Virus record (IMG/VR): IMGVR_UViG_3300005805_000011
Coordinates: 1 to 33,682 of that record
Reading direction: 5' to 3' (one strand)
DNA: 33,682 nt
From: a virus
Lineage: Duplodnaviria > Caudoviricetes
Position numbers and translations under genes: made by a program. The notes under the pieces were generated by a model. The model saw only the letters and a program-made list of their open reading frames with translations. It did not search any database and was not told the DNA's origin. Shown here in pieces: positions 1 through 33,682 of this stretch (positions are counted from its first letter, which is position 1; each line of letters opens with the position of its first letter).

Positions 1-99
1 TAAATTTTGGATGCCGTACGGATAGGGATCAAGGAATGCAATGAATTCACCAACCAAATCAGGGGAAACATTGTCCGTCATTGTAACAATCAAATAATC
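1..99. repeat. Terminal direct repeat, copy 1 (circular contig overlap)
   Basis: Bases 1-99 (taaattttggatgccg...caaataatc) are identical to 33584-33682, and a reading frame runs through the junction. Confidence 0.95.
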
Positions 100-4442: not shown

Positions 4443-7400
4443 TTATCGTGCCTTGTTTCGGATTCGGTTTTGTTTATATTGCAATGTTGACACGATCCCG
4501 TGAATGCCACGTTCATCGATCGACAACGACATTCCCTTTTGTTCCCGGATTGCCTTTTCAATCCGTGTCAGTTTTTCATCCATCCCGGCGTTTTGAACAA
4601 CCAACACCTTTGATGACATTCCCTTTGTGATGAATGGATCACGACCTTTGTGGATGTCCTCAAACAACGACCTATATTTTGCGGTTTTCTCTTTTGTGAA
4701 AACGAATTCGCCTTTGTGGACAATCCCGGCGGGTTCATATTTTCCGCCATCCCCTGTGAATCCACCTTCGGCAAAACCACCACCCGCTGATTGCGCCAAT
4801 GCACGGGCTTTGATGAATCCCGCAGTCAACGCAATGATTGTCGATGCAATCGTGAATGGTGCTAATGCACCGCCATCACGTGCGGATTTTGCAATTGCCA
4901 ATGCTGAATTGAATGCCAATTCAACGAATGCCAATGCCTGTTGTTGTCGAACGAAATTCGCACGTTGGCGGTTCAATTTATCCAATCGTTCTTCTTCCAA
5001 TTGCAACAATTCAGCATTCCCTTTTTCCGCAATTTCCTTTGCACGTTCAACCCGTTTTTCCTGTGATGATATTGCAACCTCCGTTTGTTTGATTTGTGCA
5101 TCAATCACGGAATTGATCAATGCCAACGTTTCCTTTGTCACGTCCTCGTAACCTTGCAAAATTTCTTCGTTTGCCTTTTTACTTGCATCGGTTGCGGTTT
5201 TCGCCCCATCGACATTGATTTTGTCGATCTTATCCTGTGTTTCTTTTTTCTCTTTTAAAACGTCCAATGTTGCTTGATCCTCGATCGCTTTAATCTCCAA
5301 TGCGGTTTTTCCTTTGACGTTTTTTTCCGCTTTTGCATTGGTTTCGATTTGCAAAATGCGTTCATTGGATTCACGTTTCAACGAATCGATTGTCAACAAT
5401 TTATTTTCATTCAATTGTTTCAATATCGAATCACGTTCCTTTTTTGTTGTTGCCTTTGACAAACGTTCATTCAATTTGTCACGTTCGGTTGCCAATTTTT
5501 CCTGAATGATTTGTTCATCCAATATTCGTTGTTCGGATGCGATTTTTCCAATCTCCAATTGTGATTTCAAATCACGTTGATCATAATCCCTTTTGATTTT
5601 GAAAATTTCTTTTTCCTGATCCTGTTGAATCTTTATTGCGGTCAATCGTTTCAATTCATCAAATTGCGCCTGAACACCCGCAGTCAACGTTCCCTGTTGA
5701 CGTGCATTTTCAATTTCACGATCGATGTCGGCATCGGCACGTTTTTGTTTCAATGCATACAAATCATTCACCTGTTGTTGTGCTTCGTTGAATGATTCGG
5801 GATCGGTGAATGTGATCGCTTGTTCCCGGATATCCAATCGCAATGAATTGATTTTTTCCTGTAAATTGTTGAACAATGTTTTGATTTGATCAGCGGTTTT
5901 GGAATCCGTTCCATCAGGGATTTTTATTTCAGGTGCTTTTAATGATGCACCTTCATTCAACAATTGTTCAATCCTTTTATTCAAATCATTCAATTCAAGC
6001 AAATCCTGATCAACACCATTTTGAACCTTCCCTAATGTTTTAACCAAAAGGTTTTGGTTTTTTATTTGATTTTGAATTGCCGGGTTGATATCCTGCAAAT
6101 CGGTTAATTGTCGATCGTTGATGTTCTTTTGTTCATCACCTATCACCTTTGCGTTTTTAGCAACCCTTTGTTGCAATTCACTTTGTTTTTTGTAAAGTTC
6201 AACCAACGTTTCCTCTATCGCACGTGCCTTCGCTTTGTTTTCAATCAATGCAATCGCTTTTGCGGTTTCATTGTTTACCGCCTCCTGAAACTTTTTTTCA
6301 TCATCCAAATTTTTCAACGTTGTCCCGTAGTTGTCATTCAATTCCTTAATCAATCGATTCCGTTCCGTTGATCCGTTGTTAGACTTACGGATTTGGTTGA
6401 TCAACAAATCCAATTTGGCACGTTCCTGATCGATCAAATCGTTTTCCTTTAGTTTTTGTTGTTCACGTGATTTTGCCAAATCAAAACGTTCGTTTTCCGC
6501 TTCAGTCGCTTCGGCGGTTGCATCACCGAAATCAATCAACAATGACGTTGCCAATGCCAACCCGGAAACCAACAATCCAATCGGGTTTGCCCTTAACACC
6601 GCTGAAAATGCACGTGTGGACGCAGTAACCAATCGTGTGGCAATATTCAAACCTGTGGTTGCCGTTGTTTGCAGTATTGTTCCCGCCGTTGCTGATCGTT
6701 GCACCCCGTTCACGAATGCGATTGCACGACCCTTTGCGTTTTCCAATCCTATGGAAACACGATCAACAATGTTTTTTGCGGTTATGTAACCACGTGCCAA
6801 AATCCAAAATTGATTTTGCAATCGTTGTTGGATTGTGACAAACGTGATTGCACCCGCCAAAATTTTCAACGTTGTTGCATTTTCCTGAATGAATGCCGGG
6901 ATTTGTCGGATTACCTGAATGAATTGGAACAAACCTTCAATCACGGATTCCAATGTCGGTTTCAATGCCGTGCCGATATCACGTGCCAAAAATGTGAATT
7001 CATCTTTTAACGTTGCCAATCGACCTGTCAACGATTGCGACAATTCATTTGTCAAACCGAAAAACGATCCTTTTTCACCTTCGGTTGTCAGCAATTTCAA
7101 AGCCTGTTGCAAATCCAAAAAACTGATTTTGCCTTGTTCACCGAATTTGCGAACATCCGCTTCGGCAATGTTCAAAACCTCCGCTAATTTTCCATAAATC
7201 GGAACACCCGCTTCAGCCAATTGGTTCAGTTCTTCGCCCTGAACAATCCCTTGTGTTTTCGCTTTGCCGAATATCGTTGCAAGTTCGTTGAAATCCTTTC
7301 CTGTCCCGGCACTAATGTCACCCAACGTTCGCAACGTTGATTGCAGTTCATTAACAGGAACACCGAATGCCAACAACGCACGTCCCGCCCTTGTCACTTG

Positions 7401-7745
7401 TTCGGTTTCAAAAGGTGTTGAAATTGCGAATTCCTCCAATGATTTCAAAACCTCTTTTGCCCGATCCGATGATCCCAAAAATGTGGTGAATGATATTTGC
7501 AGTTTTTCCAATTCAGCGGTTGCCGTGAATGCGGATTGTGCGAATGTCAACAACCCCTGACCGACTCCAAGTGTTGCCAATGTCGCACCCGCCTGTCGTA
7601 ACAATGAACCGAATGATGTCAGCGATTGTTCCGCCTGTTTTGTTGAATTGTTAATTTGCGCCAATTCTTTTTGAACCGCATCCAATTCCCTTCGCAATTG
7701 CCCGGTGTCGGCTTGTATTTTAAACAGGACGTTTTTCGTTGCCAT
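4443..7745 (-). CDS. Tail tape measure protein (1100 aa)
   Basis: Tape-measure N-terminal motif (TPFETEQV...GDISAGTG...QGEELNQLAEAGVP), long coiled-coil and hydrophobic helices, C-terminal FAEGGFTGDGGKYEPAGIVHKGEFV motif; preceded by a frameshifting chaperone pair. Confidence 0.93.
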   Translation of the reverse strand: MATKNVLFKIQADTGQLRRELDAVQKELAQINNSTKQAEQSLTSFGSLLRQAGATLATLGVGQGLLTFAQSAFTATAELEKLQISFTTFLGSSDRAKEVLKSLEEFAISTPFETEQVTRAGRALLAFGVPVNELQSTLRTLGDISAGTGKDFNELATIFGKAKTQGIVQGEELNQLAEAGVPIYGKLAEVLNIAEADVRKFGEQGKISFLDLQQALKLLTTEGEKGSFFGLTNELSQSLTGRLATLKDEFTFLARDIGTALKPTLESVIEGLFQFIQVIRQIPAFIQENATTLKILAGAITFVTIQQRLQNQFWILARGYITAKNIVDRVSIGLENAKGRAIAFVNGVQRSATAGTILQTTATTGLNIATRLVTASTRAFSAVLRANPIGLLVSGLALATSLLIDFGDATAEATEAENERFDLAKSREQQKLKENDLIDQERAKLDLLINQIRKSNNGSTERNRLIKELNDNYGTTLKNLDDEKKFQEAVNNETAKAIALIENKAKARAIEETLVELYKKQSELQQRVAKNAKVIGDEQKNINDRQLTDLQDINPAIQNQIKNQNLLVKTLGKVQNGVDQDLLELNDLNKRIEQLLNEGASLKAPEIKIPDGTDSKTADQIKTLFNNLQEKINSLRLDIREQAITFTDPESFNEAQQQVNDLYALKQKRADADIDREIENARQQGTLTAGVQAQFDELKRLTAIKIQQDQEKEIFKIKRDYDQRDLKSQLEIGKIASEQRILDEQIIQEKLATERDKLNERLSKATTKKERDSILKQLNENKLLTIDSLKRESNERILQIETNAKAEKNVKGKTALEIKAIEDQATLDVLKEKKETQDKIDKINVDGAKTATDASKKANEEILQGYEDVTKETLALINSVIDAQIKQTEVAISSQEKRVERAKEIAEKGNAELLQLEEERLDKLNRQRANFVRQQQALAFVELAFNSALAIAKSARDGGALAPFTIASTIIALTAGFIKARALAQSAGGGFAEGGFTGDGGKYEPAGIVHKGEFVFTKEKTAKYRSLFEDIHKGRDPFITKGMSSKVLVVQNAGMDEKLTRIEKAIREQKGMSLSIDERGIHGIVSTLQYKQNRIRNKAR

Positions 7746-18562: not shown

Positions 18563-19185
18563 AACAATGTTAATTGTGATTTGAATTCATTGAATCGTTT
18601 TTCCTGTGCTTCAAAATAGTCTTTATCGATTTCGCAACCGACAAAATCAAATCCGTTTTTGTAACAAGCGATGCGACTGCTTCCACTACCCAAATGCGAA
18701 TCAAAAATTTTGTCATTTTCATTCGCATAATGTTTCAAAATCCATTCGTATAGTTTGATTGGCTTTTGTGTTGGGTGGATTTTATCTATATTATTTGCGG
18801 AATTAAAATTAAATTTTTTTGCGGAACTTTTAAAAGATGTCCAAGCCAATTCAAATTGAGAAAATGTAATTTCCTCTGAAAAACCTTTGTCCCACATCAA
18901 CCAACATGAGGATGGAAACAAATATGTTATCATATAATTACCTCCCCAAATTATTTGATTTTTTGAAATACGAAATAATTCAATAAAATATTCGTGATCA
19001 GGAATTGATTTGTCCCAATACGCTTTTTTGTGTCCACTATGTTTTTGATTTTTTCTTCTGCCCATGTTTTCATTGATATTTATCCCATACGGCGGATCAA
19101 CGATTGCCAAATCAAAGTGCTTGTCGGCATACCGATTCATTACGTCCATGCAGTCCTGATTGAAAACAATTGAATCCTTTTTCAT
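18559..19185 (-). CDS. DNA N6-adenine/N4-cytosine methyltransferase, beta class (208 aa), paralog of the downstream gene
   Basis: DPPY, HPTQKP and DSHLGSGS motifs; C-terminus nearly identical to 17939..18562. Confidence 0.92.
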   Translation of the reverse strand: MKKDSIVFNQDCMDVMNRYADKHFDLAIVDPPYGININENMGRRKNQKHSGHKKAYWDKSIPDHEYFIELFRISKNQIIWGGNYMITYLFPSSCWLMWDKGFSEEITFSQFELAWTSFKSSAKKFNFNSANNIDKIHPTQKPIKLYEWILKHYANENDKIFDSHLGSGSSRIACYKNGFDFVGCEIDKDYFEAQEKRFNEFKSQLTLF

Positions 19186-20174: not shown

Positions 20175-21086
20175 TTAACAATTGATATTGTTGTGCATTA
20201 TTTGTGAACCGATGAAAATATCACACGTGTCATTGTTGATAAATGTTTCGGTTTCCAAACATCCACCTGATGCCGATTGTGTAAAACCTAAAATTTGCCC
20301 GACACCCAATGTCCACGTAACAGGAAACAAGGTTGTTCCATCATATAACAAATGCACCTGAACACCATTTTCCAACAACCACAATTCAGCAAATGCATTC
20401 ACACCGGGATTGATGATTGTCGGATTGATTAACAAATCAATTGCCTGTGTTGTGGTGTTTTGATATGACCATCCCTGAACGGGGGGAGGGGGGAACAAAG
20501 GGAAATTGGCGGTTGTGAAAATTGTTGTTGATGCCTGAACAATTGGAATCAAATTCCATTGTGGGCAAAAATCACAGGATGGATCGCCAAAATTAACAAC
20601 GTAAGGAATGCCATAATCGATCGAACACGAAACATTGAAAATCGATGCAAATGCAACACCACAATCAACACCACGATGTGTTGTTTTGAAAAATATGACA
20701 TCCTGATCATTCAAAACAAATTGTGTTGGAATTCCTGTCGGAATGAAATTGTCAATTCCGTTGATGTTTAAAAAGGTGTCACACGTTGCATCAGGGTTGA
20801 AAACATTAAATTCCAATGTCACCTGACACGCTGAAACACCATCAGTTGTGGCAATGATGAACGGAGGTGTTGACAATTCAGTTGATGTGATCGGTTCAAG
20901 GAATGATCCGAAAAACGGAACAACCTTCAAATCACAACAACCCGGTGTTGGGGGAATTGAATTTTGATCATTCAATTTGGAATGTTTGCAACGTGAACAA
21001 TCATTGTTGTCACATTGAACACATCCTTTGATTTGGTTTTGAACCTTTGATGTGATCCTGTCAAATGATTGTTTGATCCCCTTCAT
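20175..21086 (-). CDS. Cys-rich structural protein with an N-terminal CxxC-x4-CxxC cluster (~303 aa)
   Basis: ATGA-coupled to the CxxC membrane gene; CVQCDNNDCSRC followed by beta-rich domains; 15 Cys. Confidence 0.65.
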   Translation of the reverse strand: MKGIKQSFDRITSKVQNQIKGCVQCDNNDCSRCKHSKLNDQNSIPPTPGCCDLKVVPFFGSFLEPITSTELSTPPFIIATTDGVSACQVTLEFNVFNPDATCDTFLNINGIDNFIPTGIPTQFVLNDQDVIFFKTTHRGVDCGVAFASIFNVSCSIDYGIPYVVNFGDPSCDFCPQWNLIPIVQASTTIFTTANFPLFPPPPVQGWSYQNTTTQAIDLLINPTIINPGVNAFAELWLLENGVQVHLLYDGTTLFPVTWTLGVGQILGFTQSASGGCLETETFINNDTCDIFIGSQIMHNNINC

Positions 21087-21415
21087 TCCCTCCAAAATGA
21101 TTTGTCCAACACGTTCAATGCAAAATGTGAAAACATCGTTGTCGGAACAAACCACCAACCTGAAATTCCTATTTCAAAATAGTAGATCAGGAACACACCT
21201 GATGTGATCCAAATGTTTTGGCAATATGCACACAACCCCAAAGGATTCGCTAAAAAATGAAACGGGTTTTTCAAATTGTCCCTGAAATTTTTTTCAACGA
21301 ATGGAATCCATTTTCCGAAAACGTTACCGGGGCGAAAACAAAATTCCAAAAAAAACGTGATCAATGCCGATGTGAATGCCACAAACAACATTTCAAAAAA
21401 TTCCAATGCTTCCAT
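21083..21415 (-). CDS. Membrane protein with a CxxC motif (DUF1360-like; putative thiol-disulfide oxidoreductase, 110 aa)
   Basis: About three hydrophobic helices; PLGLCAYCQNIW sits at the start of a TM helix, resembling the DUF1360 CxxCxxxW and VKOR/DsbB active-site placement. Confidence 0.6.
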   Translation of the reverse strand: MEALEFFEMLFVAFTSALITFFLEFCFRPGNVFGKWIPFVEKNFRDNLKNPFHFLANPLGLCAYCQNIWITSGVFLIYYFEIGISGWWFVPTTMFSHFALNVLDKSFWRE

Positions 21416-21425
21416 TGTTTTACAT

Positions 21426-21746
21426 TTAAGGATTTACACACATTGAAACAACCCCGTGTGCAATGAAACAGCACGCCCCATCGGGTGACGTTGCAAAATG
21501 AACACCCTGTGACACCATACACGATGGCAATTTGATTTTGATCATCACATCCGAATTTTCGTTGAATGTGTACGGCAAAACGATTTGATCGCCCGTTCCA
21601 AATGTGACAACGGATTCCATAAATGTTCCATTGTTCCAAATTTGAAACGTGAAATCAGCATCCCCCGGACAGGGATTTGTGAAACCAAAATCGATGTTTT
21701 GATTGTACGCAAAACACCCTAATTCCTTATAGCAACCACAATTCAT
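21426..21746 (-). CDS. Small Cys-rich structural protein (106 aa)
   Basis: Starts MNCGCY; 8 Cys; beta-rich. Confidence 0.7.
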   Translation of the reverse strand: MNCGCYKELGCFAYNQNIDFGFTNPCPGDADFTFQIWNNGTFMESVVTFGTGDQIVLPYTFNENSDVMIKIKLPSCMVSQGVHFATSPDGACCFIAHGVVSMCVNP

Positions 21747-21758
21747 TTTTATTTGTTT

Positions 21759-22295
21759 TTAAATGTAGTAATTTTGTAAAGATATATCAAAATCCAATGC
21801 AACAAAAATCAGGTTTTTGTCGAATTGTTTTGGTTTGTCGGTTTCCGTTTTAAGAACGGCAATTGAATCGACCTGTGATCGCACGGGTTTGAATTCAATG
21901 TTTTTGATCATTTGGTTTCCGATTGTGAAATCCCCGATTTTGGTTGATGTGATCGCATTACGTAATGAATTTTCAAGTTCATATCGACACCAATTTTTAA
22001 CACAACAAACAACCCTCAATTCGAACACCGAAACGTTTGCCGTTTGTGAACACGAAACAAATTGTTTGTTGTTTGGAATTTCTTCGAATCGGATTTCGCC
22101 ATTGTCCCGGTGTCGAATATAAAACCAATTGATCAGGTTGTCACCGATCCCGGAATAAACATATTCGGTTGAATCATCGTTTTGGATCAAAACACGTCCA
22201 TCATCATCGATGATTGCCAATGCAACACCTTTTGTCAACACAGGCATTTTTGATTTGATCGAATTGATCAGGACTTTCAAAATATCTTTTATCAT
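21759..22295 (-). CDS. Putative tail completion/terminator-type connector protein (178 aa)
   Basis: Size, alpha/beta pattern and position after the 158-aa morphogenesis-like gene. Inference only. Confidence 0.45.
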   Translation of the reverse strand: MIKDILKVLINSIKSKMPVLTKGVALAIIDDDGRVLIQNDDSTEYVYSGIGDNLINWFYIRHRDNGEIRFEEIPNNKQFVSCSQTANVSVFELRVVCCVKNWCRYELENSLRNAITSTKIGDFTIGNQMIKNIEFKPVRSQVDSIAVLKTETDKPKQFDKNLIFVALDFDISLQNYYI

Positions 22296-22768
22296 AATCG
22301 TGCGATTATTTCATCAATTTTTTCATTCAACAGATCCGTGATGTAAGCGGATGTTTCAATTTCTTCGTTTTGTGATGGAACGAAAATATCCATTTTCTTT
22401 TTACCGATTTTTTTCGCTTGAATGATTTCCTGACCTGTCGCCTTTAAATAATCAGCATCATTGATCACCGCCAAAACAACTTCCGAATCGTTTTCCTGAA
22501 CAACCTGAATTGAATTTCGCAAATCGGATGTGAATTCCAAATCAACGAATCCGATTTGGTTTCCTTTTTTTTCCCTCTTTTTTTTCCACCACTTTGATTT
22601 GTATGAACCGATTGCGGTTTCAGCGGAATTCAAACCCTTGTTAAATATGCGGGTTTTCATTTCACCTTCCAAATATTTGCCACCCAACAACAATAAATCT
22701 CCTTTGTAATTGGCAATTTCAATCGACAATTGTCTAACCTTGTTTTGAAAATTTTCCCGTGTGATCAT
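22292..22768 (-). CDS. Putative virion morphogenesis/neck protein (158 aa)
   Basis: YKSKWWKKKREKKG...VDLEFTSDLRNSI resembles tail-completion (Mu gpG/HK97 gp10-like) proteins. Confidence 0.55.
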   Translation of the reverse strand: MITRENFQNKVRQLSIEIANYKGDLLLLGGKYLEGEMKTRIFNKGLNSAETAIGSYKSKWWKKKREKKGNQIGFVDLEFTSDLRNSIQVVQENDSEVVLAVINDADYLKATGQEIIQAKKIGKKKMDIFVPSQNEEIETSAYITDLLNEKIDEIIARL

Positions 22769-23196
22769 CGTTTGATTGAATCAATTAGTTTTGAAATAGC
22801 AATCAGAAAAATCAAAAACAATGCAATAGCCAAAAATCCAAAAATGCCATCGTTTTTCATCAGGTGAATGATCCGTTGTGTTGTTGTTTCGGTTTTCCAT
22901 TTGGTGACAACGATCGTGTCCGATGGACATTCAGGTTGAATGAATATTGAATCACCGGGCAACCTGACAACCTTCACACGAACATCCGTGTTTTTGTCAA
23001 CGATGAAAATCGTGTCACGATTCAAAACCGAAATGATCGTGTCAAACGATTTCGATGTCGTGATGATTGTTGTGTCAATGAATGTCGTGATGACGTTTGT
23101 TGATTCCGGGAATTTTTCCGCACACCTTTGTGCGGTTATGCAACCCGATTCAACAACCATCATCAGGAACACGAACGGGATCAACAGGTTTTTCAT
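22765..23196 (-). CDS. Lipoprotein with a C-terminal TM helix; putative unimolecular spanin (143 aa)
   Basis: Signal peptide ending SGC (Cys19), beta-rich middle, C-terminal GIFGFLAIALFLIFLIAI; directly after the holin. Confidence 0.55.
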   Translation of the reverse strand: MKNLLIPFVFLMMVVESGCITAQRCAEKFPESTNVITTFIDTTIITTSKSFDTIISVLNRDTIFIVDKNTDVRVKVVRLPGDSIFIQPECPSDTIVVTKWKTETTTQRIIHLMKNDGIFGFLAIALFLIFLIAISKLIDSIKR

Positions 23197-23683
23197 CCTT
23201 TTTTACGATATCATTTTTGTATGCATCAATTTTTTTGTAGAATATTTCAGCAAATATCGGGTTGATCATTTTCAACAATGACAGGTTTTTCACCAATGAC
23301 AACATCGAAACAATAACCAACGGCACGAACACCGCTTCGTTCAACCAAATCAACGCACCTGATCCCTTTGAAACATTTGTTGCAAACATCAACAATGCCG
23401 TGTGTGATAACATTGTCCAAAGGAAACGCAATGCTTTCCGGGTTTCGAATTTATCATTGCGAAATGCCAACACGATCCCTGTGATATTGTCACAAACGAT
23501 CAAACCGATCAATGAATAAAATGAAATTGCGGGATCAAATATCCAATCGGAAACGAATCCTGTCGTTGCACCAAACGAAAACCCACCAATCAACGTTGTC
23601 ATCAATACTTCATTTTTAAGTTTTAATGACAATATAGATTCCACAACCTCGATCACTTCATTCGGCAACAAATATTTTTTCAT
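23150..23683 (-). CDS. Holin (phage holin 4-like, ~177 aa)
   Basis: Multiple TM helices, D.ITG motif (VCDNITGIVLA) and SLVKNL. Likely start is ATG 23683. Confidence 0.75.
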   Translation of the reverse strand: MKKYLLPNEVIEVVESILSLKLKNEVLMTTLIGGFSFGATTGFVSDWIFDPAISFYSLIGLIVCDNITGIVLAFRNDKFETRKALRFLWTMLSHTALLMFATNVSKGSGALIWLNEAVFVPLVIVSMLSLVKNLSLLKMINPIFAEIFYKKIDAYKNDIVKKDEKPVDPVRVPDDGC

Positions 23684-23685
23684 TT

Positions 23686-23799
23686 TCAAAAACGTTTTGG
23701 GCGGGTTGTCGGTTTGATGGGGCGGGTTGTCGTTGGACGTGGGCGAGAGCCTCCACACGATCCACATCCTTTGTTTTCTAAAACGATTTGTTTTGTCAT
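23686..23799 (-). CDS. Small CxxC peptide (37 aa, MTKQIVLENKGCGSCGGSRPRPTTTRPIKPTTRPKRF)
   Basis: Below the ORF-track cutoff. ATG 23799 after an A-rich leader, TGA at 23686; exactly fills the gap between the 313-aa gene and the holin. Confidence 0.65.
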   Translation of the reverse strand: MTKQIVLENKGCGSCGGSRPRPTTTRPIKPTTRPKRF

Positions 23800-23811
23800 T
23801 TTATTTTTGGT

Positions 23812-24753
23812 TTAAGGTAAGCCTTGAACATATCGTGATTGATTGCAAATGATACAACAATCATCAACACGTTTCATCAATTCGGGAATCGATGCGATCA
23901 GGATTTTGAAATGTTTGTCGTATTCCTTTGAAAACATATCAAACAAAAATTCCGTTTTTTCCGAATCCAACAACGTCATTGAATTCAAACGATCGGATGT
24001 GATAGCCTCTTTTATGATCTCCAATCCTGATTTGTAAAGGATCGGCAATGCCAATTTTGGCGCAAGGATGCAACCTAATTCATCAATTGAACATTCGGAA
24101 TTCGCTTTGACATTCAACCCATAGGTTGAATTTGCATTGTTCGCCCCGTTCCAACCTGATCCATTCAAATATTGTGATGATTTGGATGAACATCCGCAAC
24201 CCTCTTTGACATCCGAATCATTGACGTTGATATTGGTGTCATTCATCGTGATGAATATTTCATTGGATGTCGAAAAATAATCCGGGAACAATTCAGCATT
24301 GCCATTCGCATCAGTTGTGAACGGAAACGATGTTGTGTTCAATCCATCAGTAATTTCAACGGAATGATTGAAATTCGCTTGTTGTATGTTTACAACAATT
24401 GAATTCACCCTGATCCTGATCAACCGGGATTGTTTTGTTTTCAAACGAACACCACGATCGGCATTCATCAAAGGCAAAAACGTTGTCGTAAATTTACCGA
24501 CATCAATTGTGTCGATGATAGAATTCATCCTGAAATAAGGCAATGAATACGCCGAAATTTCATTCAATACCAATGATGTGGCGAATTCAATTTTTGATTT
24601 CAGGAATTCCAATCCTGAAACGTGATCCGAATCGGCAATGTCGGATGCGTAACGTAAATTCAAACCCTCCAAATCGTTGATCCAAAATCCGGATTTGGAT
24701 TGTGTGTAACACCTAACACCGATGTAATTTTCAAGACAATTTGGAATACTCAT
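23812..24753 (-). CDS. Cys-rich structural protein, putative head-tail adaptor (313 aa)
   Basis: Helical termini with an inserted beta region; 9 Cys including CGC and CCIIC. Role inferred. Confidence 0.5.
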   Translation of the reverse strand: MSIPNCLENYIGVRCYTQSKSGFWINDLEGLNLRYASDIADSDHVSGLEFLKSKIEFATSLVLNEISAYSLPYFRMNSIIDTIDVGKFTTTFLPLMNADRGVRLKTKQSRLIRIRVNSIVVNIQQANFNHSVEITDGLNTTSFPFTTDANGNAELFPDYFSTSNEIFITMNDTNINVNDSDVKEGCGCSSKSSQYLNGSGWNGANNANSTYGLNVKANSECSIDELGCILAPKLALPILYKSGLEIIKEAITSDRLNSMTLLDSEKTEFLFDMFSKEYDKHFKILIASIPELMKRVDDCCIICNQSRYVQGLP

Positions 24754-25249
24754 ATGGATCGGAATTGTAAATGTTTTTTTCGTTGATTTTTATTTTGCAA
24801 TGATTACGCAACCAATTCGGAACAAAAAATGATGGACAGGCTTTGTTCGAAAATTGGTTGTGACCCGCAATCAATACATCAGGATTGTATGCCAAAACTT
24901 CAGCGATGATCGATGTCAGCATCATTGATTGTGTTTCGGTCATTGTGTTTTTTGGTGTTCGTTTGTCGGCATCCAATCCCCCAATATAGCAAACGTGCCG
25001 GGATATTGAATTGATTCCCGCAACACCATTTGTGATTTCGTTTTCATCGATCCATTTGTCACCATTATGTTTCACGAAATTGTGTCGTGATCCATCCAAC
25101 AAAATCAAATCCGAATATCCGACACGTGACCAACCTCGACCGACAGGTTTTGGTTTGGTGTGCCAATTGCGAATTGTTTCAGCGGTGAATGATTTTCCTT
25201 CGGGTGTCGCTGAACAATGAATAATCAAAAATTTATGTTGTCGTTTCAT
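24731..25249 (-). CDS. Endolysin, N-acetylmuramoyl-L-alanine amidase (Amidase_2, T7 lysozyme-like)
   Basis: IIHCSAT, GWSRVGY, VCYIGG and GHNQFSNKACPSF zinc-amidase motifs. Likely start is ATG 25249. Confidence 0.92.
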   Translation of the reverse strand: MKRQHKFLIIHCSATPEGKSFTAETIRNWHTKPKPVGRGWSRVGYSDLILLDGSRHNFVKHNGDKWIDENEITNGVAGINSISRHVCYIGGLDADKRTPKNTMTETQSMMLTSIIAEVLAYNPDVLIAGHNQFSNKACPSFFVPNWLRNHCKIKINEKNIYNSDPYEYSKLS

Positions 25250-25589
25250 TTTCGTTTTGCGGTTGATCATCAACGGGCAAATCGGGTTTTTCGGTTTTGG
25301 TTTTTGATGCCTTCATTTTATTTGACAAAACGAATGTGTCATATCGTTTTCCCTCTTTTTTTTCAACCTTTATTCCGGGCATTTCATTTTCAATCCATTC
25401 GATCACACCCTGAATTTGATTGTTCAATTTGTATCGATATGAAAATTTTTGAATCCCAAATTCAACGGAATTTTTTTCGGCATTCAAAACCTGAACATCA
25501 TATGATGTCCCGATTCCCCAAACAAATGTTTCAATCGCTTTTGCAATTTCATCATTGGTTTGTTTCAATTTGTGTTGACTGATTAACAT
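25233..25589 (-). CDS. Hypothetical protein (118 aa)
   Basis: ORF between the terminator and the amidase. Confidence 0.65.
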   Translation of the reverse strand: MLISQHKLKQTNDEIAKAIETFVWGIGTSYDVQVLNAEKNSVEFGIQKFSYRYKLNNQIQGVIEWIENEMPGIKVEKKEGKRYDTFVLSNKMKASKTKTEKPDLPVDDQPQNENETTT

Positions 25590-25612
25590 TCAATTTTTGT
25601 TTTAGTAAAAGT

Positions 25613-25649
25613 AAAAAAAAACGGGGATCAAACAACCGACCCCCGTTTT
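25613..25649 (-). terminator. Rho-independent terminator after the capsid/tail tube genes
   Basis: AAAACGGGG...CCCCGTTTT stem followed by T9 on the minus strand. Confidence 0.8.
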
Positions 25650-25672
25650 GACATCAAACAAACAAACAAATT

Positions 25673-26227
25673 TTACAATCCTGACAAATCAACCGCCACA
25701 GGGCAAATCATCGTGACGGAATTCCAAAGGATTGTTCCATCAAAATAAGTTGACCCGGTGTTGTTGTCCTCAATGACCTCATCGATTTCAATTTGAAAAT
25801 CGTTGATCACTCCGTAAAAATAGCCATCGCATGAATAATAGCCAAATTTATAGGATGATGGTTCAGCCAAAATCGTGTTCCAAAAATCGTAAGCCAAACA
25901 ACCACCACCGGGGGTGATTGTGTCGGTGTTGTAATCTTGGAACGTCAATTGTTTTTCAGCACCGACAACACCTTCAGGTTGACAGGATGCGATCCTTTTT
26001 TTGGTGAATGATCCTTTTGGTTTTTGTCCCAAAATCAAACCGCTGAAAACAACGTCATCCGATGCAACCGCCGCAGTCCATTCGGCAACACTTGTAATGT
26101 CGGTGAACGTGTAATCACATTTGATGAACACCAATTTTTGAATCCCTCCGGGACGTGATACAATTCCGCATCCACCCGCATATGATGCGGGTAGTGCGGG
26201 GGCGCAATTTGAATTACATATTGCCAT
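25673..26227 (-). CDS. Putative major tail tube protein (184 aa, Cys-rich)
   Basis: Size and beta-rich pattern (RPGGIQKLVFIKC...KQLTFQD...YFDGTILW); lies between the capsid gene and a strong terminator; 8 Cys. Confidence 0.65.
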   Translation of the reverse strand: MAICNSNCAPALPASYAGGCGIVSRPGGIQKLVFIKCDYTFTDITSVAEWTAAVASDDVVFSGLILGQKPKGSFTKKRIASCQPEGVVGAEKQLTFQDYNTDTITPGGGCLAYDFWNTILAEPSSYKFGYYSCDGYFYGVINDFQIEIDEVIEDNNTGSTYFDGTILWNSVTMICPVAVDLSGL

Positions 26228-26262
26228 TTTTTACCTCCTTATTTTTTAAATTGTTTAAATGA

Positions 26263-27279
26263 TTATGGACATTGAACCGCACCCGCTGAACAATCTTCGA
26301 ACAACAATGTCAAATTGCTATCGGCATTCACGCAAAGTGATGTTTTAGGAATAAAGAACAAAGCCCAATTCAAAGCCAATTCAACAAACCATTTTTCGGT
26401 ACAATCATCGTAAGACGTTTTTAAATCGTAAACCAACCCGGTGAACGGATCAACGATTGTTCCGTGAGTGAATGAATCATTTTGTTTTGCATACTCACCC
26501 GCATATTTGTTCCACGTGATCATTTGAACCGCACCGGGGGCGAATGCAAGGAATTGAGTAGGACTGAAAACTGAATTCACGTTGATGTCGTGGAAAAACA
26601 TTCCATCGGATGACATTCGTGATAAATCCATTCCGAATTCCGTGTTGCAACAAGCGATTTGTTGTGCCTTTGCGTAAATGTCAAGTGATGAACCGCCAAC
26701 GATCAAAGGTGTTCCATTTGCGCCCAATTCATCCATATAGTGGCGGATTTGCGCCCAAGCCAACGGATTCGGTGAACCTGATGTGGTATAAAGCGGAATT
26801 TGTGTCAAAGCCGATCCTGATGCATTGTCACCGATGTTTGTTGATGCCAAAGCCAAAACCGCTTTGTCAACAGACATATTGATTGCGTTCATCGACTTCA
26901 TAATGTTTTGGGAAACCCAAACGTTGTCGGCTTCGCACAATTTACGCATTTCGTTCTCATCAAATGACATTTTGTATTTCGCACAATTGAATTCCGAAAT
27001 GATTGTTTCATTTGGTTCAGGTGTTACATCAGCGGTGCAATCAGCAACGCAATCGGTGTTCACATCGGCATCACACGCCTGTGCGATCCAATTCACCTGA
27101 ACTTGTTTGAATTTTCCGTTTGTCGGAACCATTTGTGCGGTCATTTGTGACCTGTTCACCTGTGACATCAATGCATCGATGTAACCTACTTTTTGGCGAT
27201 TCAATGCGGGGGCGTTTGTCCCGGCAACGTCATTGATGTTCACCTGTAATTTTTCGCATAATCCTTTAGTGTATGCCAT
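26263..27279 (-). CDS. Major capsid protein (338 aa, Cys-rich)
   Basis: Follows the scaffold and has its own promoter and leader; size and FLAFAPGAVQMITW pattern fit an HK97-fold capsid; 12 Cys. Confidence 0.8.
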   Translation of the reverse strand: MAYTKGLCEKLQVNINDVAGTNAPALNRQKVGYIDALMSQVNRSQMTAQMVPTNGKFKQVQVNWIAQACDADVNTDCVADCTADVTPEPNETIISEFNCAKYKMSFDENEMRKLCEADNVWVSQNIMKSMNAINMSVDKAVLALASTNIGDNASGSALTQIPLYTTSGSPNPLAWAQIRHYMDELGANGTPLIVGGSSLDIYAKAQQIACCNTEFGMDLSRMSSDGMFFHDINVNSVFSPTQFLAFAPGAVQMITWNKYAGEYAKQNDSFTHGTIVDPFTGLVYDLKTSYDDCTEKWFVELALNWALFFIPKTSLCVNADSNLTLLFEDCSAGAVQCP

Positions 27280-27326
27280 TTTAATTTTTGATTTTTTTAG
27301 TTAATAATTGATTTGAAATTTTGAGT

Positions 27327-27510
27327 AAAAAAAAATCCTGACACGAACAAATGATGAATCAATTGTTGTTCGAATCAGGTTTCGAATTTCACCCGGTGCA
27401 TATTGGGATGCCTCCCCTGTTTAAGTTTTCGAACCTCCGTTCCGTTTGGTTTAAGGTGCGGGAATTAGTGAATGATTCACGGATCAATCAAAAACCCCCG
27501 CAACCCTAAC
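27327..27510 (-). ncRNA. Putative structured cis-regulatory leader upstream of the capsid gene
   Basis: Three stem regions (27431-27509, 27378-27435, 27337-27379); the last is followed by U9. Confidence 0.45.
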
Positions 27511-27516
27511 ATTCTA

Positions 27517-27545
27517 CAAATATAAATATTTTTTTATTGTCCAAA
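27517..27545 (-). promoter_or_regulatory. Bacteroidota-type promoter (TTTG-N17-TATATTTG)
   Basis: Consensus -7 element just after the scaffold stop codon. Confidence 0.6.
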
Positions 27546-28349
27546 TGTGCGGATGTTTTTCATTTGTTCCGCATTTTGTTTTGCCAAATCCAAACCGGGC
27601 AAATTGAATTTCGTTTCCGTTTTCGAATCAGGTGTGAATGTCGATTTCCGTTCCAATTGTTTTTGTTCGGGTGTTCCGTTACTTTGCTTTACTACGTTCA
27701 ACGACTTCAATTGGTTTTCCAAAATTTCATCAAATGTCAAAACCTTTGTTCCATCATCATTCAGGGGATTCAATCCATCCTTTGTTTTAACAATCAACGA
27801 TCCATCATCATTCAAATCAACGTTGAATTGTTTGTTGATGTAATTTTGAACGGCGGGAAAAACCACTTCGGATGAAACAATCAATTGTTTCGATCCCAAA
27901 ATCGAACGGATTGCGGATTCCTTTTTGAATGATTTGATTTGTTCCTTTGCTTCGTTTTCCTTTGCCGGGATGATTTCATCGGTCAAACGTTTATTTTCTT
28001 TTGTCAATTCAATGATCCTGTTTTGCAATTCATCGGTTGTCGATGATCCCGACAATTTCAATTTGTCGTGTGCGATTTGTAGGATGTCATCAAATTTTTT
28101 TTCCTTTATTTCATCCGCTGACAAACCGAATGTTTTTTTCAATTTGTGTTCCACCTTTGACAATTCCGTTCCCCTGATTTCATCCTTTATCGGTTGAATG
28201 AATTCGGGATCGTTGGCAATTACGTCACGGAAATTTGATTTGAATGATTGTGCGAATTCATCAACATTCAATTCATCATCGGTTGTCAGTTTTGAAATCA
28301 CATCGGATTTGACACCGATTTTTTTAAGGAATGTTTCAATGTTTTTCAT
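27534..28349 (-). CDS. Capsid scaffolding protein (271 aa)
   Basis: Charged coiled-coil protein directly upstream of the capsid gene; no Cys. Confidence 0.7.
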   Translation of the reverse strand: MKNIETFLKKIGVKSDVISKLTTDDELNVDEFAQSFKSNFRDVIANDPEFIQPIKDEIRGTELSKVEHKLKKTFGLSADEIKEKKFDDILQIAHDKLKLSGSSTTDELQNRIIELTKENKRLTDEIIPAKENEAKEQIKSFKKESAIRSILGSKQLIVSSEVVFPAVQNYINKQFNVDLNDDGSLIVKTKDGLNPLNDDGTKVLTFDEILENQLKSLNVVKQSNGTPEQKQLERKSTFTPDSKTETKFNLPGLDLAKQNAEQMKNIRTFGQ

Positions 28350-28657
28350 TTGGGTTGTTTTTGATATTTACGTTTGGGTTTTTCGTTGTCCATTTCAATT
28401 TGTGTTCCTGATTCCGATTCAACGAAATTGGTGAATCCGGGGAATTCCGATTCGGTTGTTTCGGTTTCCATTGTTTCATTTTCGTTTGTAGGTTGTTGAA
28501 TCGATTCAATTGTTGGTGCATTCAAAACGGGTTTTGAATTTACAACCATATAATTGTGAAACAATTTGTTTTTTTTCAATGTGTCCATTGCGGTTTGTGT
28601 AATATCAAAAACCTTTCCTGTTTTGACATTCATCACACGGATTGTTTGTTGTTTCAT
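28346..28657 (-). CDS. Hypothetical head-module protein (103 aa)
   Basis: Small N-terminal domain, acidic linker and basic tail; ATGA-coupled to the scaffold. Confidence 0.7.
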   Translation of the reverse strand: MKQQTIRVMNVKTGKVFDITQTAMDTLKKNKLFHNYMVVNSKPVLNAPTIESIQQPTNENETMETETTESEFPGFTNFVESESGTQIEMDNEKPKRKYQKQPK

Positions 28658-28679
28658 TTTGTTTTGTTTGATTCGTTTT

Positions 28680-28710
28680 CAAAATTAAATTTTAATTTTC
28701 GGATTTCAAA
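28680..28710 (-). promoter_or_regulatory. Bacteroidota-type promoter (TTTG-N19-TAATTTTG)
   Basis: Exact -33/-7 consensus and spacing upstream of the 103-aa gene. Confidence 0.6.
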
Positions 28711-28880
28711 TTTGGCTTTTTTTCAATCAATTCAAAAACAATTTCATTTGATTGTCCTGTTAATTTTTTATCGTGATTTACTTCTGACATTAAAATTTCA
28801 CAAGGTATTCCATTAGGAAAAGCCAAACAAGTTAATGAATTTATTTTTAAATGTTTACAATTATTACAGGATGTTTTCAT
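28692..28880 (-). CDS. Small Cys/His protein (CxxCxH...CxAFPxGIP), putative partner/immunity protein of the MuF toxin (62 aa)
   Basis: ATGA-coupled to MuF-ART and shares its AT-rich composition. Confidence 0.65.
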   Translation of the reverse strand: MKTSCNNCKHLKINSLTCLAFPNGIPCEILMSEVNHDKKLTGQSNEIVFELIEKKPNLKSEN

Positions 28881-30409
28881 TTTATTATGATTATATTTTT
28901 TGGATCAAATACAATTGTTTGATTCCCTCCAATTTTTCGTGTTACTGATCCAATTTCATTGATGCCTTTATCAACAATTATCATTGAATCATAACCATAT
29001 TTTTTAGCGGTGAATGATAATGCTTCACCATATGGATTTGGCAATGGATTGTTTTGAAAATATTCATTCCTTTGATTTTGATCTTTTATTTTTTGTCCCT
29101 CATCAAATATTGATGACCAAATTTTTTCTAATTCATCAAATTTTTCATTAAATGTTTTTTCAAATTCACTTCCAAATTTTTTAATTTGATCCAATTGATT
29201 TTTTGAACTTACACCAACACCTGTTTCAAATATTAAAGGATTTGAAACATTTACTTTTATTTTTAATTTTTTGGAATTTTCATTTCCATAAAAATCTAAT
29301 GTTTGATTGTTATCCGATAAATAAACACCATCACCCCAAACCCGACCGAATCCTGATTTGTTATTCAAATCAAATCCATTTTTCATTAGTGATTCAATAT
29401 TTGTTGTTTTTGTAACGTGATAAAAATCCTGTTTTAAAATTGAATTTTCCGTTAATTTTTTTGCATCTTGTATTGACATTGATGGATTCCATTTTAATTC
29501 ATCAATTTTTTCATCCTTTTGTTCCTGATCCCGATTGTATTTTTCCATTTGGGATTTTGTGATTTTGAATGGAATCGCTGAATGTCGGCAATTGTAACCG
29601 CCACGAAACACCGCAAAGTTTTCAGCGGTTGTTCCGGGAATCATCCCTGATCCGTTCGAATATGCCCACGAAATTTCAGTCGGCAAATCATCCAACAACA
29701 ATGTTCCCTTGTTGACCCAACGAACACATTGCGGACGTGAATCATCGATCAATGAACCTACATATTTGTAGGCATTCAAACCAAATTCCCCGGCAATCCG
29801 TGAATTCACCTGTCCATCGAATTGATTCAACGTATCACGTGCAATTTGTGTCGTGTATTTTTTGAATTGACCAAGCCTCAATTCATCCGACAAAATGAAT
29901 TGTTTCAAATATGATTCCAAATCCGTGATCGTTGCACCTCCGACAATGTTTTTGAAAATGCCTTCTTTCATCGGTTGTGTGAATTGTGTTGAAATCCCCG
30001 ATCCTGTCAAACCTTCGATCGTTTGATCGACAACCTGTTTTTGCATCGGGTTGATCAGTTTTTCCAATTCAGCCTCCGACAAATCATTCACGTCCTGATG
30101 TGCATCGAAATTGAATTGTTTGATCGTATCAAACGACCGCAAAAATTCCTTCACCTTTGCCGGGTAGTTCGATGATTGGATCGCATCCGAAATGATGTCA
30201 TCCAATTCATTGATGATTTGAACGTTCGTGTCATCAAAAATCGCTTTGCCCGAATCAACGTTCATTTGCAAAACTTTTTTCCTTACGGCATCGTAAATCG
30301 TTTTTTCGATATTCGAAAACCCATCGATGAACCTGTTGTCGGCATTGTCGATTGCATTCAGTTTTTTTTTCAGGATGTCATCGACCTTCCGTGAAAACCC
30401 ATCAGCCAT
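28877..30409 (-). CDS. MuF/head morphogenesis minor capsid protein with a C-terminal ADP-ribosyltransferase-like (ART-PolyVal-like) domain (510 aa)
   Basis: YKYVGSLIDDSRPQC...GGYNCRH MuF motifs, then FYHVT...GFD...WGDGVYLS...NPL...GYDSMII...IVFDPKNI ART-like motifs. Confidence 0.75.
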   Translation of the reverse strand: MADGFSRKVDDILKKKLNAIDNADNRFIDGFSNIEKTIYDAVRKKVLQMNVDSGKAIFDDTNVQIINELDDIISDAIQSSNYPAKVKEFLRSFDTIKQFNFDAHQDVNDLSEAELEKLINPMQKQVVDQTIEGLTGSGISTQFTQPMKEGIFKNIVGGATITDLESYLKQFILSDELRLGQFKKYTTQIARDTLNQFDGQVNSRIAGEFGLNAYKYVGSLIDDSRPQCVRWVNKGTLLLDDLPTEISWAYSNGSGMIPGTTAENFAVFRGGYNCRHSAIPFKITKSQMEKYNRDQEQKDEKIDELKWNPSMSIQDAKKLTENSILKQDFYHVTKTTNIESLMKNGFDLNNKSGFGRVWGDGVYLSDNNQTLDFYGNENSKKLKIKVNVSNPLIFETGVGVSSKNQLDQIKKFGSEFEKTFNEKFDELEKIWSSIFDEGQKIKDQNQRNEYFQNNPLPNPYGEALSFTAKKYGYDSMIIVDKGINEIGSVTRKIGGNQTIVFDPKNIIIIK

Positions 30410-32342
30410 TGACGTTCAAATTTGGTTCGACAGGAACAATTGGTTTCGGTGTTCCAATGATACGTGTCGCAATGTCCTGATTGAATCCATAAATTTCCAT
30501 CAACAACGCAACCGCTGATTCAGGATCGGTGACACCCGATGCAACGGATTGTTGTATTTCAATGATGCCCTGAACACCTCCGACCGATCCTTTCAAATTC
30601 GCTTTGGCTTCGGCTTCACGTTTTTGGATTTCAGCATCGACATTCATTTGTTCACCACCCGCCAAATCAACAACCTGTTTTGGAATGTACTGATCAACGA
30701 TCACATTCAACCGGGAATCCATTTCAGCAAATATCGTTGACATTTCATTTTCCAAAAATTCCGTTCCGTTTTCAGCAACGATTTGTGATAAAACTTTGAA
30801 TGCATAAATTGATTTGATGATGTCATCCTTTTTAATTGTCCCGGATGCCAACATCATTGATTTGTCCTTTGTGTTGATATGATAAATCGGATCGTAAACA
30901 ACCAATATTTCAACCATTCGTGCAATCGACTTGTTTCCTGAAAAACGTTTCCGTGCCAAATCTTTTGTGGTTTCAACCAAAAACGAAATCGGTGCGTTTT
31001 TATCATTCAATTTATTTATTTCATCAATCAAATCGTTTTCGGTTTTCATTGAAAACGAAATCGGTTTCACAATGACAGGTGACATCGGATTTGTTACATT
31101 CCTGTAACCCTCAATGAACAACAACGATTTGAAAATAATTTCATCAAAAATGTTGTTGCTGATTTTTGTCAACACCATAAACGAATCCTCACGATCGATT
31201 TCCTTTGCAACACCTGATTGTGCTTCGTTGATTGTGTTCAGGTGCAATGATTCTTCGGCTTTTTTCAACAACGTTTGCCATGCATTCCCGGAATATTCAA
31301 TCACATCCACAGGCGGTGACACGAAACGAATCATCGGTTCGGATGATCCTGATCCACCGCCATCCAAAATTGAATTGTTTTTTTCACGTAGAAAAACACC
31401 GAATGGGGATCGTGTTATCACACGTCCTGTTCCTTTGCAAACACGACACGGATGATGTTCCTGATCCTTTTCATTCCAACAAACCCCATCACGACAACCC
31501 GGTGCGGAACACGTTTCGGCAACCTCCTCACGATACGGAAAACAGGTTGTTGTCATAACACCCTGCCAATCGGAATATTGCCTGATCGCTTCGTTTCCAA
31601 ATGGAACAAATGCGTGAAAATAACTTTCGAAATATTCGTTGTCAGTTAGATCACCACCCAACACCATAGCCGGGACAACACCCAAATTGTGTTCGTATAT
31701 TGGAATCAACTGAAATCTTTTTTCCTTTGATGTTCCGATTTGGATGTGTTTGTAAAATCCTGTTTCAGTCAACGAATAATAAACCAAACCTGATTGTTTT
31801 GATTTTCCGTTTTCATAAATTTCGGAATGCTCGTTTTCATCCAACCAAACAATCACATCATCATCGACAAATTTTATTTGGTTTGAATAAATCAAAAGGG
31901 GTTTGACCTCCACTTTGATCGATGAATCATTCAAACCTTCACCTGTCGGAATCCAAATCAAATATCCGTTGGGATCTTCGATCATTCGCCTGACAACGTA
32001 TTTTTGAACATAGGAATAAAAATATTGTCCATCGAATTTTTTCATTGACAAATATTCATTCAATTCTTCTGACACCTGAATTGAAAAATTTGCCGATCCG
32101 AAAATCCGATACAATTTGTCGATCGCACGATTCATCGATCCTTTCGTGATCGGTTCATAAATAGACAAACGATATTTTTGGATTTCGGGATCTTCGTTCG
32201 GTCTTCGGGATGTAAGTATTTCACCGGGATTGCGTCCACGTGTATGAACAAACATCGTGTCACGAACACGATTCCAATCATCCCAATGTTTCGGTTTGTC
32301 AATCTTTGACAAATTATCATTCAAATAAACGATGTCAATCAT
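30402..32342 (-). CDS. Portal protein with an inserted DnaJ-like Cys cluster (646 aa)
   Basis: Position before MuF/scaffold/capsid; YEHNLGVVPA and AQSGVAKEIDRE portal-like motifs; CSAPGCRDGVC...CRVCKGTG insertion. Confidence 0.82.
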   Translation of the reverse strand: MIDIVYLNDNLSKIDKPKHWDDWNRVRDTMFVHTRGRNPGEILTSRRPNEDPEIQKYRLSIYEPITKGSMNRAIDKLYRIFGSANFSIQVSEELNEYLSMKKFDGQYFYSYVQKYVVRRMIEDPNGYLIWIPTGEGLNDSSIKVEVKPLLIYSNQIKFVDDDVIVWLDENEHSEIYENGKSKQSGLVYYSLTETGFYKHIQIGTSKEKRFQLIPIYEHNLGVVPAMVLGGDLTDNEYFESYFHAFVPFGNEAIRQYSDWQGVMTTTCFPYREEVAETCSAPGCRDGVCWNEKDQEHHPCRVCKGTGRVITRSPFGVFLREKNNSILDGGGSGSSEPMIRFVSPPVDVIEYSGNAWQTLLKKAEESLHLNTINEAQSGVAKEIDREDSFMVLTKISNNIFDEIIFKSLLFIEGYRNVTNPMSPVIVKPISFSMKTENDLIDEINKLNDKNAPISFLVETTKDLARKRFSGNKSIARMVEILVVYDPIYHINTKDKSMMLASGTIKKDDIIKSIYAFKVLSQIVAENGTEFLENEMSTIFAEMDSRLNVIVDQYIPKQVVDLAGGEQMNVDAEIQKREAEAKANLKGSVGGVQGIIEIQQSVASGVTDPESAVALLMEIYGFNQDIATRIIGTPKPIVPVEPNLNVNG

Positions 32343-32350
32343 TTTGTTTT

Positions 32351-33409
32351 TTATTTACACGAATATGTTTTTGAGCAATCAACTTTGCGGAACGGAACAT
32401 CAATGAACCATTGGTTTCCGATTTCATTGTTTTTTCCGATTTCACCATCGACAACGTATTCAATGCCATCAACGAAAACGTTTTCGGCATTCATCAAATT
32501 GGCGATCAGTTTTGCGACACGTTGCGGAATTCGGTTCGTTTTCAAAATCCAATTTTCATTCAATTGCGATGTTGTTGTTTTCAATTTAGTTCCAACAAAT
32601 TCCTTTGTGATTTCAAATGATGTTTGTTCGAATGCACCCTCGACACGATATGTGTTTTGAAATGCAAAAACGTTTCCGTTTCCGACCTGTTGTGTCCCGT
32701 AGTAATATGAAAAACAATCACGATCAGGATAAACACCTTGTAACAAAATGGTTGTTTTTTCAAGCGGACACGGATTGAAAATGTATGGTTCTGTACAAAA
32801 ACAATATTCCGTTGCCAATCCCAAATTGAAACAAAATTCCAAAACGAAACATCCTTTGCCATTTGGGAATTGTGCGATCAAATCAACATACAATTGCCCG
32901 GTGTCGATTTCAATCATTTGGATGTTTTTCCACGTTGTGTTTCCTGTGTAATCTGTGATCGGGAACACACCGACAAACGTGTTGGTTGCGTAATCCGTGA
33001 TCGAAACAGGGATTCCACCATTTTCCAAATAATCCCCATTGCAACAATCTTTGATGAATCCATCAACGAAACCTCCCGTTCCCCAACCAAAGGTGAATGA
33101 TCCGTTTGGATCGTTTCCGTTCATCGTGTCGATTTGTTGGAATTGGAAAAACATCGATTCACCCGGATTTACTATATTGAAATAAGGCAAATCATTCCCG
33201 CACAAATTACAATTCCACGTGTCATTGCATTCACACAAAACCAATCCATTGTTGACAACGGCATTGTCGCAAATCCCGCCACCACATTGAATGATTTCAA
33301 TTTCACCGCAAACGATACGTGATGACGTGTCAGCCAATTCACACGATGAATCACTGACATCGCACCAAACCTCATTCCCTAACTGATACGAATCAAAATA
33401 GACTGACAT
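32351..33409 (-). CDS. Cys-rich structural (tail tip-like) protein (352 aa)
   Basis: 19 Cys; beta-rich; follows the 941-aa protein in the tail-tip block. Confidence 0.65.
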   Translation of the reverse strand: MSVYFDSYQLGNEVWCDVSDSSCELADTSSRIVCGEIEIIQCGGGICDNAVVNNGLVLCECNDTWNCNLCGNDLPYFNIVNPGESMFFQFQQIDTMNGNDPNGSFTFGWGTGGFVDGFIKDCCNGDYLENGGIPVSITDYATNTFVGVFPITDYTGNTTWKNIQMIEIDTGQLYVDLIAQFPNGKGCFVLEFCFNLGLATEYCFCTEPYIFNPCPLEKTTILLQGVYPDRDCFSYYYGTQQVGNGNVFAFQNTYRVEGAFEQTSFEITKEFVGTKLKTTTSQLNENWILKTNRIPQRVAKLIANLMNAENVFVDGIEYVVDGEIGKNNEIGNQWFIDVPFRKVDCSKTYSCK

Positions 33410-33421: not shown

Positions 33422-33682
33422 TTAGACGTGATACAAACCACACAATTGATATTTTCCAACGGGCAATGATGACAAATCAACATAAAATTGCGCCGATCCA
33501 TTGAACACGTTTGACACGTTGTAAATCGGTGTTGATGACAATTGAATCATTCCTGATGGGGATGGAATCGGATCGGATTCCTGTAAATTTTGGATGCCGT
33601 ACGGATAGGGATCAAGGAATGCAATGAATTCACCAACCAAATCAGGGGAAACATTGTCCGTCATTGTAACAATCAAATAATC
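33422..33682 (-). CDS. C-terminal end of the ~941-aa Cys-rich protein that starts at 2664
   Basis: In frame with 1..2664 across the 99-bp overlap; TAA at 33422. Confidence 0.85.
   Translation of the reverse strand, partial: DYLIVTMTDNVSPDLVGEFIAFLDPYPYGIQNLQESDPIPSPSGMIQLSSTPIYNVSNVFNGSAQFYVDLSSLPVGKYQLCGLYHV
33584..33682. repeat. Terminal direct repeat, copy 2 (circular contig overlap)
   Basis: Identical to bases 1-99. Confidence 0.95.

Follow-up and report, generated by a model that had tools for sequence, protein, structure and literature searches.

The 33,682-nucleotide stretch analyzed here in full (IMG/VR record IMGVR_UViG_3300005805_000011), referred to below as the window, is the complete genome of a long-tailed phage with direct terminal repeats of 99 nt. 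The cysteines (Cys) of its predicted major capsid and tail tube proteins are gained and lost two at a time among relatives, which suggests that the particle is stapled by disulfides, and from these sequence patterns we consider a disulfide-linked virion in this lineage very probable. The genome also encodes a 110-aa membrane protein with a CxxC motif. The single best reading of this protein, which we favor tentatively, is that it may be the thiol oxidase for the virion proteins.

Paired changes of capsid and tube cysteines

All 12 Cys of the capsid protein (n = 10) and all 8 of the tube protein (n = 11) are invariant among close homologs. When homologs were thinned to <90% identity, the number of Cys was even in 33 of 36 capsids and in every one of 32 tubes. 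On trees built with the Cys columns masked (29 capsid and 28 tube sequences, >35% identical), each branch that carries a Cys change carries exactly two (7/7 for the capsid and 2/2 for the tube). A larger capsid set, which partly overlaps the first, comprises 94 proteins, including 84 of full length and 76 with both ends and >40% identity. The count is even in 75 of these 76, and the number of Cys changes is even on 14 of 15 branches, or on 12 of 13 without two branches that represent one-column alignment shifts. Even branches account for 28 of the 29 Cys changes; a null in which changes are placed by branch length averages 6.1 and never exceeds 18 in 20,000 runs. Control residues display no Cys-like pattern, the number of changes being even on 6/31 (W), 5/30 (H), 29/81 (Y), and 37/102 (F) branches.

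The capsid residues that change together are C77-C99, which was lost jointly on three separate occasions, C69-C316, and C330-C337; relatives also have a pair at approximately positions 152 and 319 that was gained more than once. In the tube, C110-C175 was lost jointly. Changes by twos at distant sites fit disulfides better than metal sites with three or four ligands. The structural model of the capsid is of low confidence (predicted local distance difference test [pLDDT] score, 46) and contains a long central helix, presumably as in HK97-type folds.

The initial annotation had proposed a Cys-crosslinked virion, and the paired gain and loss supports this well for capsid and tube. The rule of even counts does not extend to four other proteins, which weighs against the proposal: even numbers were found in 17/44 homologs of the 313-aa predicted adaptor, 15/34 of the 106-aa protein, 2/16 of the 352-aa protein, and 8/30 of the 178-aa protein. 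Their uneven parity may reflect bonds between proteins or free thiols.

The Cys counts given in that annotation were exact upon recount (Table 1), and the absence of Cys from the tape measure protein (0/1100) and from the predicted scaffold was confirmed. Nine Cys-rich proteins together contain 3.61% Cys (119/3297), versus 1.52% (44/2903) in 14 nonstructural proteins, a difference for which Fisher's test (p = 1.7e-7) overstates the case because Cys content guided the choice of the Cys-rich group. The ten remaining proteins of the structural region contain 0.31% (11/3495).

The CxxC membrane protein as a candidate thiol oxidase

The membrane protein, previously described by its CAYC motif, is encoded by a real and conserved gene. 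C62, C65, and seven other positions are invariant in 25 close homologs. A profile search returned 445 clusters at E <= 0.001. Of the best 150, 143 were new, and every one of these retains CxxC, although the profile itself favors CxxC-bearing matches. In an alignment of 144 sequences, invariance is limited to C62 and C65. The AlphaFold2 model (pLDDT, 95) has helices at residues 2-27, 63-82, and 86-107 and two short helices ahead of the CxxC, with C65 at the start of helix 63-82. In 142 of the 144 sequences (the other 2 are ties), the CxxC side carries more lysine and arginine, and by this positive-inside count the motif is predicted to face the cytoplasm. Some VKORs break the positive-inside rule, according to the available part of one report (PMC13486548).

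Judged from its sequence, the 110-aa protein is a remote relative of DUF1360. It matches phrog_781 at E 0.0026 and shows remote homology to DUF1360 at E 3.7e-5, with the CxxC and transmembrane (TM) motif aligned, and a profile-profile comparison with actinophage DUF1360 gave a probability of 81% (E 1.2e-5, 64 columns). DUF1360 makes up 11% of its atlas cluster. The protein falls below the gathering cutoff of the Pfam family, and 4 of 89 relatives match it, only below the cutoff.

The CxxC gene is found in all 19 distinct loci that leave space for it after the 106-aa gene, among 50 loci found through the capsid or the amidase. Scanning by motif yielded 38 IMG/VR loci. The family is present in all 35 of the new ones, 33 of which also encode proteins homologous to structural proteins of the window, at identities as low as ~20%, and their capsids have 6-10 Cys where seen. 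A search of whole records was positive in 8 of 23, namely, all five close relatives, one distant relative, Verity, and prophiT46-2; in addition, six MabL prophages carry a DUF1360 gene. Separately, members of the CxxC family occur in phage contigs of 195 kb (L115:9794-10171) and 53 kb (L124:9899-10207), near which no structural gene of the window has a recognizable homolog.

Very probably, the Cys pairs of capsid and tube form disulfides, both inside single subunits and from one subunit to another, like those of the phages Milano and Jabs, and proteins that are ejected or removed stay free of Cys. If the 110-aa protein is an oxidase, its CxxC would be held at the cytoplasmic face of the membrane and, late in infection, would pass its disulfide to virion subunits or to assembled heads and tails, either directly or via a small protein with N-terminal Cys such as the 106-aa neighbor. 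It would then be reoxidized by an acceptor in the membrane, for instance quinone, in the manner of an inward-facing archaeal VKOR. Because only three membrane helices are predicted, oligomerization would probably be needed. Such an enzyme would work like an inward-facing VKOR or DsbB while standing outside those families, and it would involve no relay of the poxvirus type.

Several results weigh against an oxidase role. The gene belongs to the core set of the lineage, and its co-occurrence inside that lineage therefore counts as a single inherited event. Fourteen phages that share only the amidase with the window, 8 of them >=90% complete, have no family match, and among these a group of 30-kb phages has 4 invariant Cys in the predicted capsid and in the tube; on the coding strand of two complete genomes of this group, no gene combining CxxC with a TM helix was found, and the best family match had an E of 0.11. 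Co-occurrence of the CxxC family with Cys-rich virions, which the initial annotation put forward as a check, is not strict. The DUF1360 gene of A3Wally is adjoined by Cys-poor genes (a comparison of neighboring genes only), and one of the 14 cellular genomes used as controls has DUF1360 above the cutoff. The protein itself lacks a second conserved Cys pair, with C26 present in 83/144 sequences. No DsbB/VKOR sequence-family match was obtained, and DsbB/VKOR were absent from the top 50 fold matches among 48,161 chains, a search that returned only generic helical bundles, which discriminate poorly. The proposed membrane oxidase nevertheless stands as a fair candidate, given an invariant CxxC that opens a predicted TM helix, the predicted cytoplasmic side, its status as a core gene, and its Jabs-type relatives.

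The accompanying relay proposed for this oxidase finds no support. Thioredoxin, glutaredoxin, and Erv families were not found among the 45 proteins scanned with Pfam and PHROGs. The tiny Cys-pair proteins do exist, but they do not resemble a relay: only one other locus was found to have the 62-aa protein, and the 85-aa protein is a DUF5754 protein whose position varies between genomes. Only the 106-aa neighbor is a plausible oxidase partner among the small proteins, and we infer that it is either a small virion protein or a partner of the CxxC protein. Small proteins opening with an N-terminal CxC or Cys pair are encoded by Verity, prophiT46-2, Tonitrus, and Milano. Against the oxidase reading, seven loci with the CxxC gene have 0 Cys in the 106-aa homolog.

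It is quite possible, and almost as probable as the oxidase reading, that the disulfides form instead spontaneously, at or after lysis, between prepositioned Cys and that the CxxC protein has another job, most likely as an anchor or initiator of portal or head assembly or as a lysis accessory. Late, postlysis bond formation is raised as a possibility in the accessible text of the Jabs preprint (bioRxiv 10.64898/2026.07.24.740622), and the failure to find a relay protein, together with the phages that have invariant virion Cys and no CxxC family, is in keeping with it. The DUF1360 gene lies immediately before the portal gene in five actinophages, a position that also fits a role in head assembly, and in the window the CxxC gene shares a block with the holin and amidase genes. 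A pure anchor, however, leaves unaccounted for both the restriction of invariance to the two Cys and the recurrence of genes for a CxxC membrane protein and an N-terminal CxC protein in separate lineages with disulfide-bonded virions.

A role of the CxxC protein as a thiol isomerase or reductase that prevents scrambling of virion Cys, or in handling and loading zinc or copper, rather than as a net oxidase, seems unlikely. A single CxxC with the semiconserved H97 and C26 could bind metal, the portal has a Cys cluster resembling a zinc finger, and no quinone-binding fold was recognized in the fold search. However, H97, which is invariant in the 25 close homologs, is found in 43/144 sequences of the wider family, in which C26 varies as well, and a reductase is hardly needed in a reducing cytoplasm.

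Gene block and cysteines of the other proteins

The minus strand carries the long open reading frames (ORFs). Matches to Pfam or PHROGs families identify the terminases, the tape measure protein, RecT, two methyltransferases, the holin, and the amidase. For the capsid, tube, adaptor, scaffold, portal, and tail-tip proteins, these collections gave no named match, and roles were assigned from position and size. A PDB sequence search with the capsid and tube only gave no match. The named atlas family nearest to the 184-aa protein is tail tube (score, 0.90; 146 features), which is a lead only. Genes from 33422 down to 19916 are for the most part tightly packed (largest gaps, 254, 128, and 83 nt), and their order is kept among related IMG/VR loci. 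The ATG of the 303-aa gene overlaps the stop of the CxxC gene. No cultured relative was found.

Table 1. Locations of the genes discussed, with Cys content and basis of naming
Feature	Position	Strand	Remarks
941-aa predicted tail protein, N-terminal part	1..2664	-	Gene spans terminal repeat
582-aa predicted tail-tip protein, 15 Cys	2682..4430	-	phrog_12387
Tape measure protein, 0 Cys	4443..7745	-	Family match
303-aa variable accessory protein, 15 Cys	20175..21086	-	After CxxC gene; found in 9 other loci
110-aa DUF1360-like membrane protein, candidate thiol oxidase	21083..21415	-	C62-C65 starting predicted TM helix 2
106-aa protein, N-terminal Cys cluster, 8 Cys	21426..21746	-	In close relatives, always next to the CxxC gene
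178-aa predicted tail-completion/terminator protein, 4 Cys	21759..22295	-	Role inferred from position
158-aa protein, no Cys	22292..22768	-	Weak HK97-gp10-like match, E 0.003, under cutoff
Holin (23150-23683) and amidase (24731-25273), inside same gene block	23150..25273	-	Family matches
313-aa predicted head-tail adaptor, 9 Cys	23812..24753	-	4 Cys columns kept in 44/44 homologs
184-aa predicted tail tube protein, 8 Cys	25673..26227	-	Role from position/size
338-aa predicted major capsid protein, 12 Cys	26263..27279	-	Role from position/size
271-aa predicted scaffold, 0 Cys	27534..28349	-	Role inferred from position
646-aa predicted portal, 6 Cys	30402..32342	-	5/6 Cys at residues 278-302
352-aa predicted tail-tip protein, 19 Cys	32351..33409	-	
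941-aa predicted tail protein, 29 Cys, C-terminal part	33422..33682	-	Continues from 1-2664

Among the 48 ORFs listed, and not counting the membrane protein or the 62-aa protein, a CxxC motif is present in six Cys-bearing proteins of the structural region. The Cys cluster of the predicted portal ends in CxxCxGxG and is kept in relatives; we take it to be a likely zinc-finger insertion or metal site rather than a set of disulfides. The six CxxC-bearing proteins and several odd Cys counts could suggest that virion Cys in general are metal ligands or free thiols, which we regard as very improbable, since the capsid and tube contain no CxxC motif, their Cys change two together and often at distant sites rather than in threes or fours, and the Cys-rich virions that have been solved turned out, in the available portions of those reports, to be disulfide linked.

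Other features of the gene block were also observed. The amidase gene, the holin gene, and a gene for a 143-aa spanin-like protein are interleaved among head-tail connector genes (22765-25273), an order kept throughout the lineage, and there is no separate lysis cassette. Two near-duplicate N6/N4 DNA methyltransferase genes stand in tandem at 17939-19185. A 510-aa protein encoded at 28877-30409 (minus strand), inferred to be a MuF-like head-morphogenesis protein, has a C-terminal extension of ~220 aa that is missing or different in relatives (284-608 aa) and that, by motif, presumably resembles an ADP-ribosyltransferase-type domain. The 62-aa CxxC gene (28692-28880, minus strand) comes after it and may encode its partner.

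Three further observations concern related loci. The loci with Cys-free homologs of the 106-aa protein form a clade (L105, L119, L126, L127, L132, L135, and L139) that combines a 6-Cys capsid with an intact CxxC gene; no tube homolog was recognized in the DNA examined. In a subclade (L045:11686-12480, L031, L043, and L073), a gene for an immunoglobulin-like protein of 260-280 aa with 12-14 Cys is inserted directly after the tube gene. The 30-kb outgroup encodes a conserved protein of ~61 aa with 6-7 Cys before the head genes (L085:2522-2815, L082:3019-3207, and L096:2641-2826).

Comparison with known systems

The poxvirus E10/A2.5/G4 relay is a virus-encoded system for the oxidation of virion proteins in the cytoplasm. 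It is shared with the window as a concept only, there being no Erv-type flavin adenine dinucleotide oxidase or glutaredoxin among the window's scanned proteins. DsbB and VKOR are four-helix quinone-binding bundles. As in the 110-aa protein, their CxxC starts a membrane helix, whereas the 110-aa protein has three predicted membrane helices and no shuttle Cys pair. An inward-facing VKOR from Aeropyrum that oxidizes cytoplasmic proteins provides a precedent for the orientation, as described in the available part of its report (PMC13486548). Literature searches for a phage-encoded virion oxidase found none.

Disulfide-bonded virions have been described, in the accessible texts, for Milano (PMC10491603), Pam3 (PMC9942802), and Jabs (bioRxiv 10.64898/2026.07.24.740622), and a disulfide-linked virion in the window's lineage would thus be of an already known kind (Milano and Jabs). 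What catalyzes the formation of hundreds of disulfides in a phage built in a reducing cytoplasm is stated to be an open question in the available text of the Jabs preprint (bioRxiv 10.64898/2026.07.24.740622). The present analysis adds predicted disulfide pairs at residue level for a large uncultured lineage and ties to that question one small gene family that has a homolog among actinophages amenable to culture. With this homolog and an existing Escherichia coli assay, described in the accessible text of PMC13486548, the question can be put to a direct test. If the oxidase reading is true, a compact inward-facing oxidase would represent a new class of enzymes and could serve to produce disulfide-bonded proteins in the bacterial cytoplasm; should the assay fail, one more disulfide-stabilized phage family and a conserved membrane protein remain.

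Like the window, the Agrobacterium phage Milano has a Cys-rich capsid (10/465), tube, and neck and a tape measure protein without Cys (0/778), and its stability is reported to be sensitive to dithiothreitol (PMC10491603, in its accessible part). Just before its terminase gene (L058:3913-4287), it encodes gp4, an 81-aa protein with CPCC and a hydrophobic helix, followed by gp5, a virion-associated 42-aa protein with an N-terminal CxC. The gp4 ORF is the only one in the Milano genome that passed a filter for CxxC plus a TM helix. Unlike the window, Milano has a contractile tail, and the phages are unrelated; gp4 has no detectable homology to the CxxC family (probability, 0.2%), which counts against the oxidase reading.

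The mycobacteriophage Jabs is, like the window, a siphophage with disulfides throughout its virion, approximately 1,700 of them in the account given by the available preprint text (bioRxiv 10.64898/2026.07.24.740622), and it is described as MabL-like (PMC12993973, in its accessible part). It differs in host group and capsid type, and the Cys percentage on its side is far lower (6/594 in the capsid of its relative prophiT46-2). In its MabL relatives, a DUF1360 gene akin to the gene for the 110-aa protein occurs together with a gene for a small N-terminal CxC protein, and a DUF1360 gene in Jabs itself is inferred from these relatives. Members of DUF1360 (PF07098)/phrog_781 resemble the 110-aa protein in being small membrane proteins in which a CxxC followed by Trp stands at the start of a TM helix. 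It is conceivable, though somewhat doubtful, that DUF1360-like proteins are widespread minimal inward-facing phage thiol oxidases, which would make them the first phage-encoded disulfide catalysts, working with small N-terminal-Cys partners to cross-link virions within the host cell across unrelated lineages that include the Jabs type.

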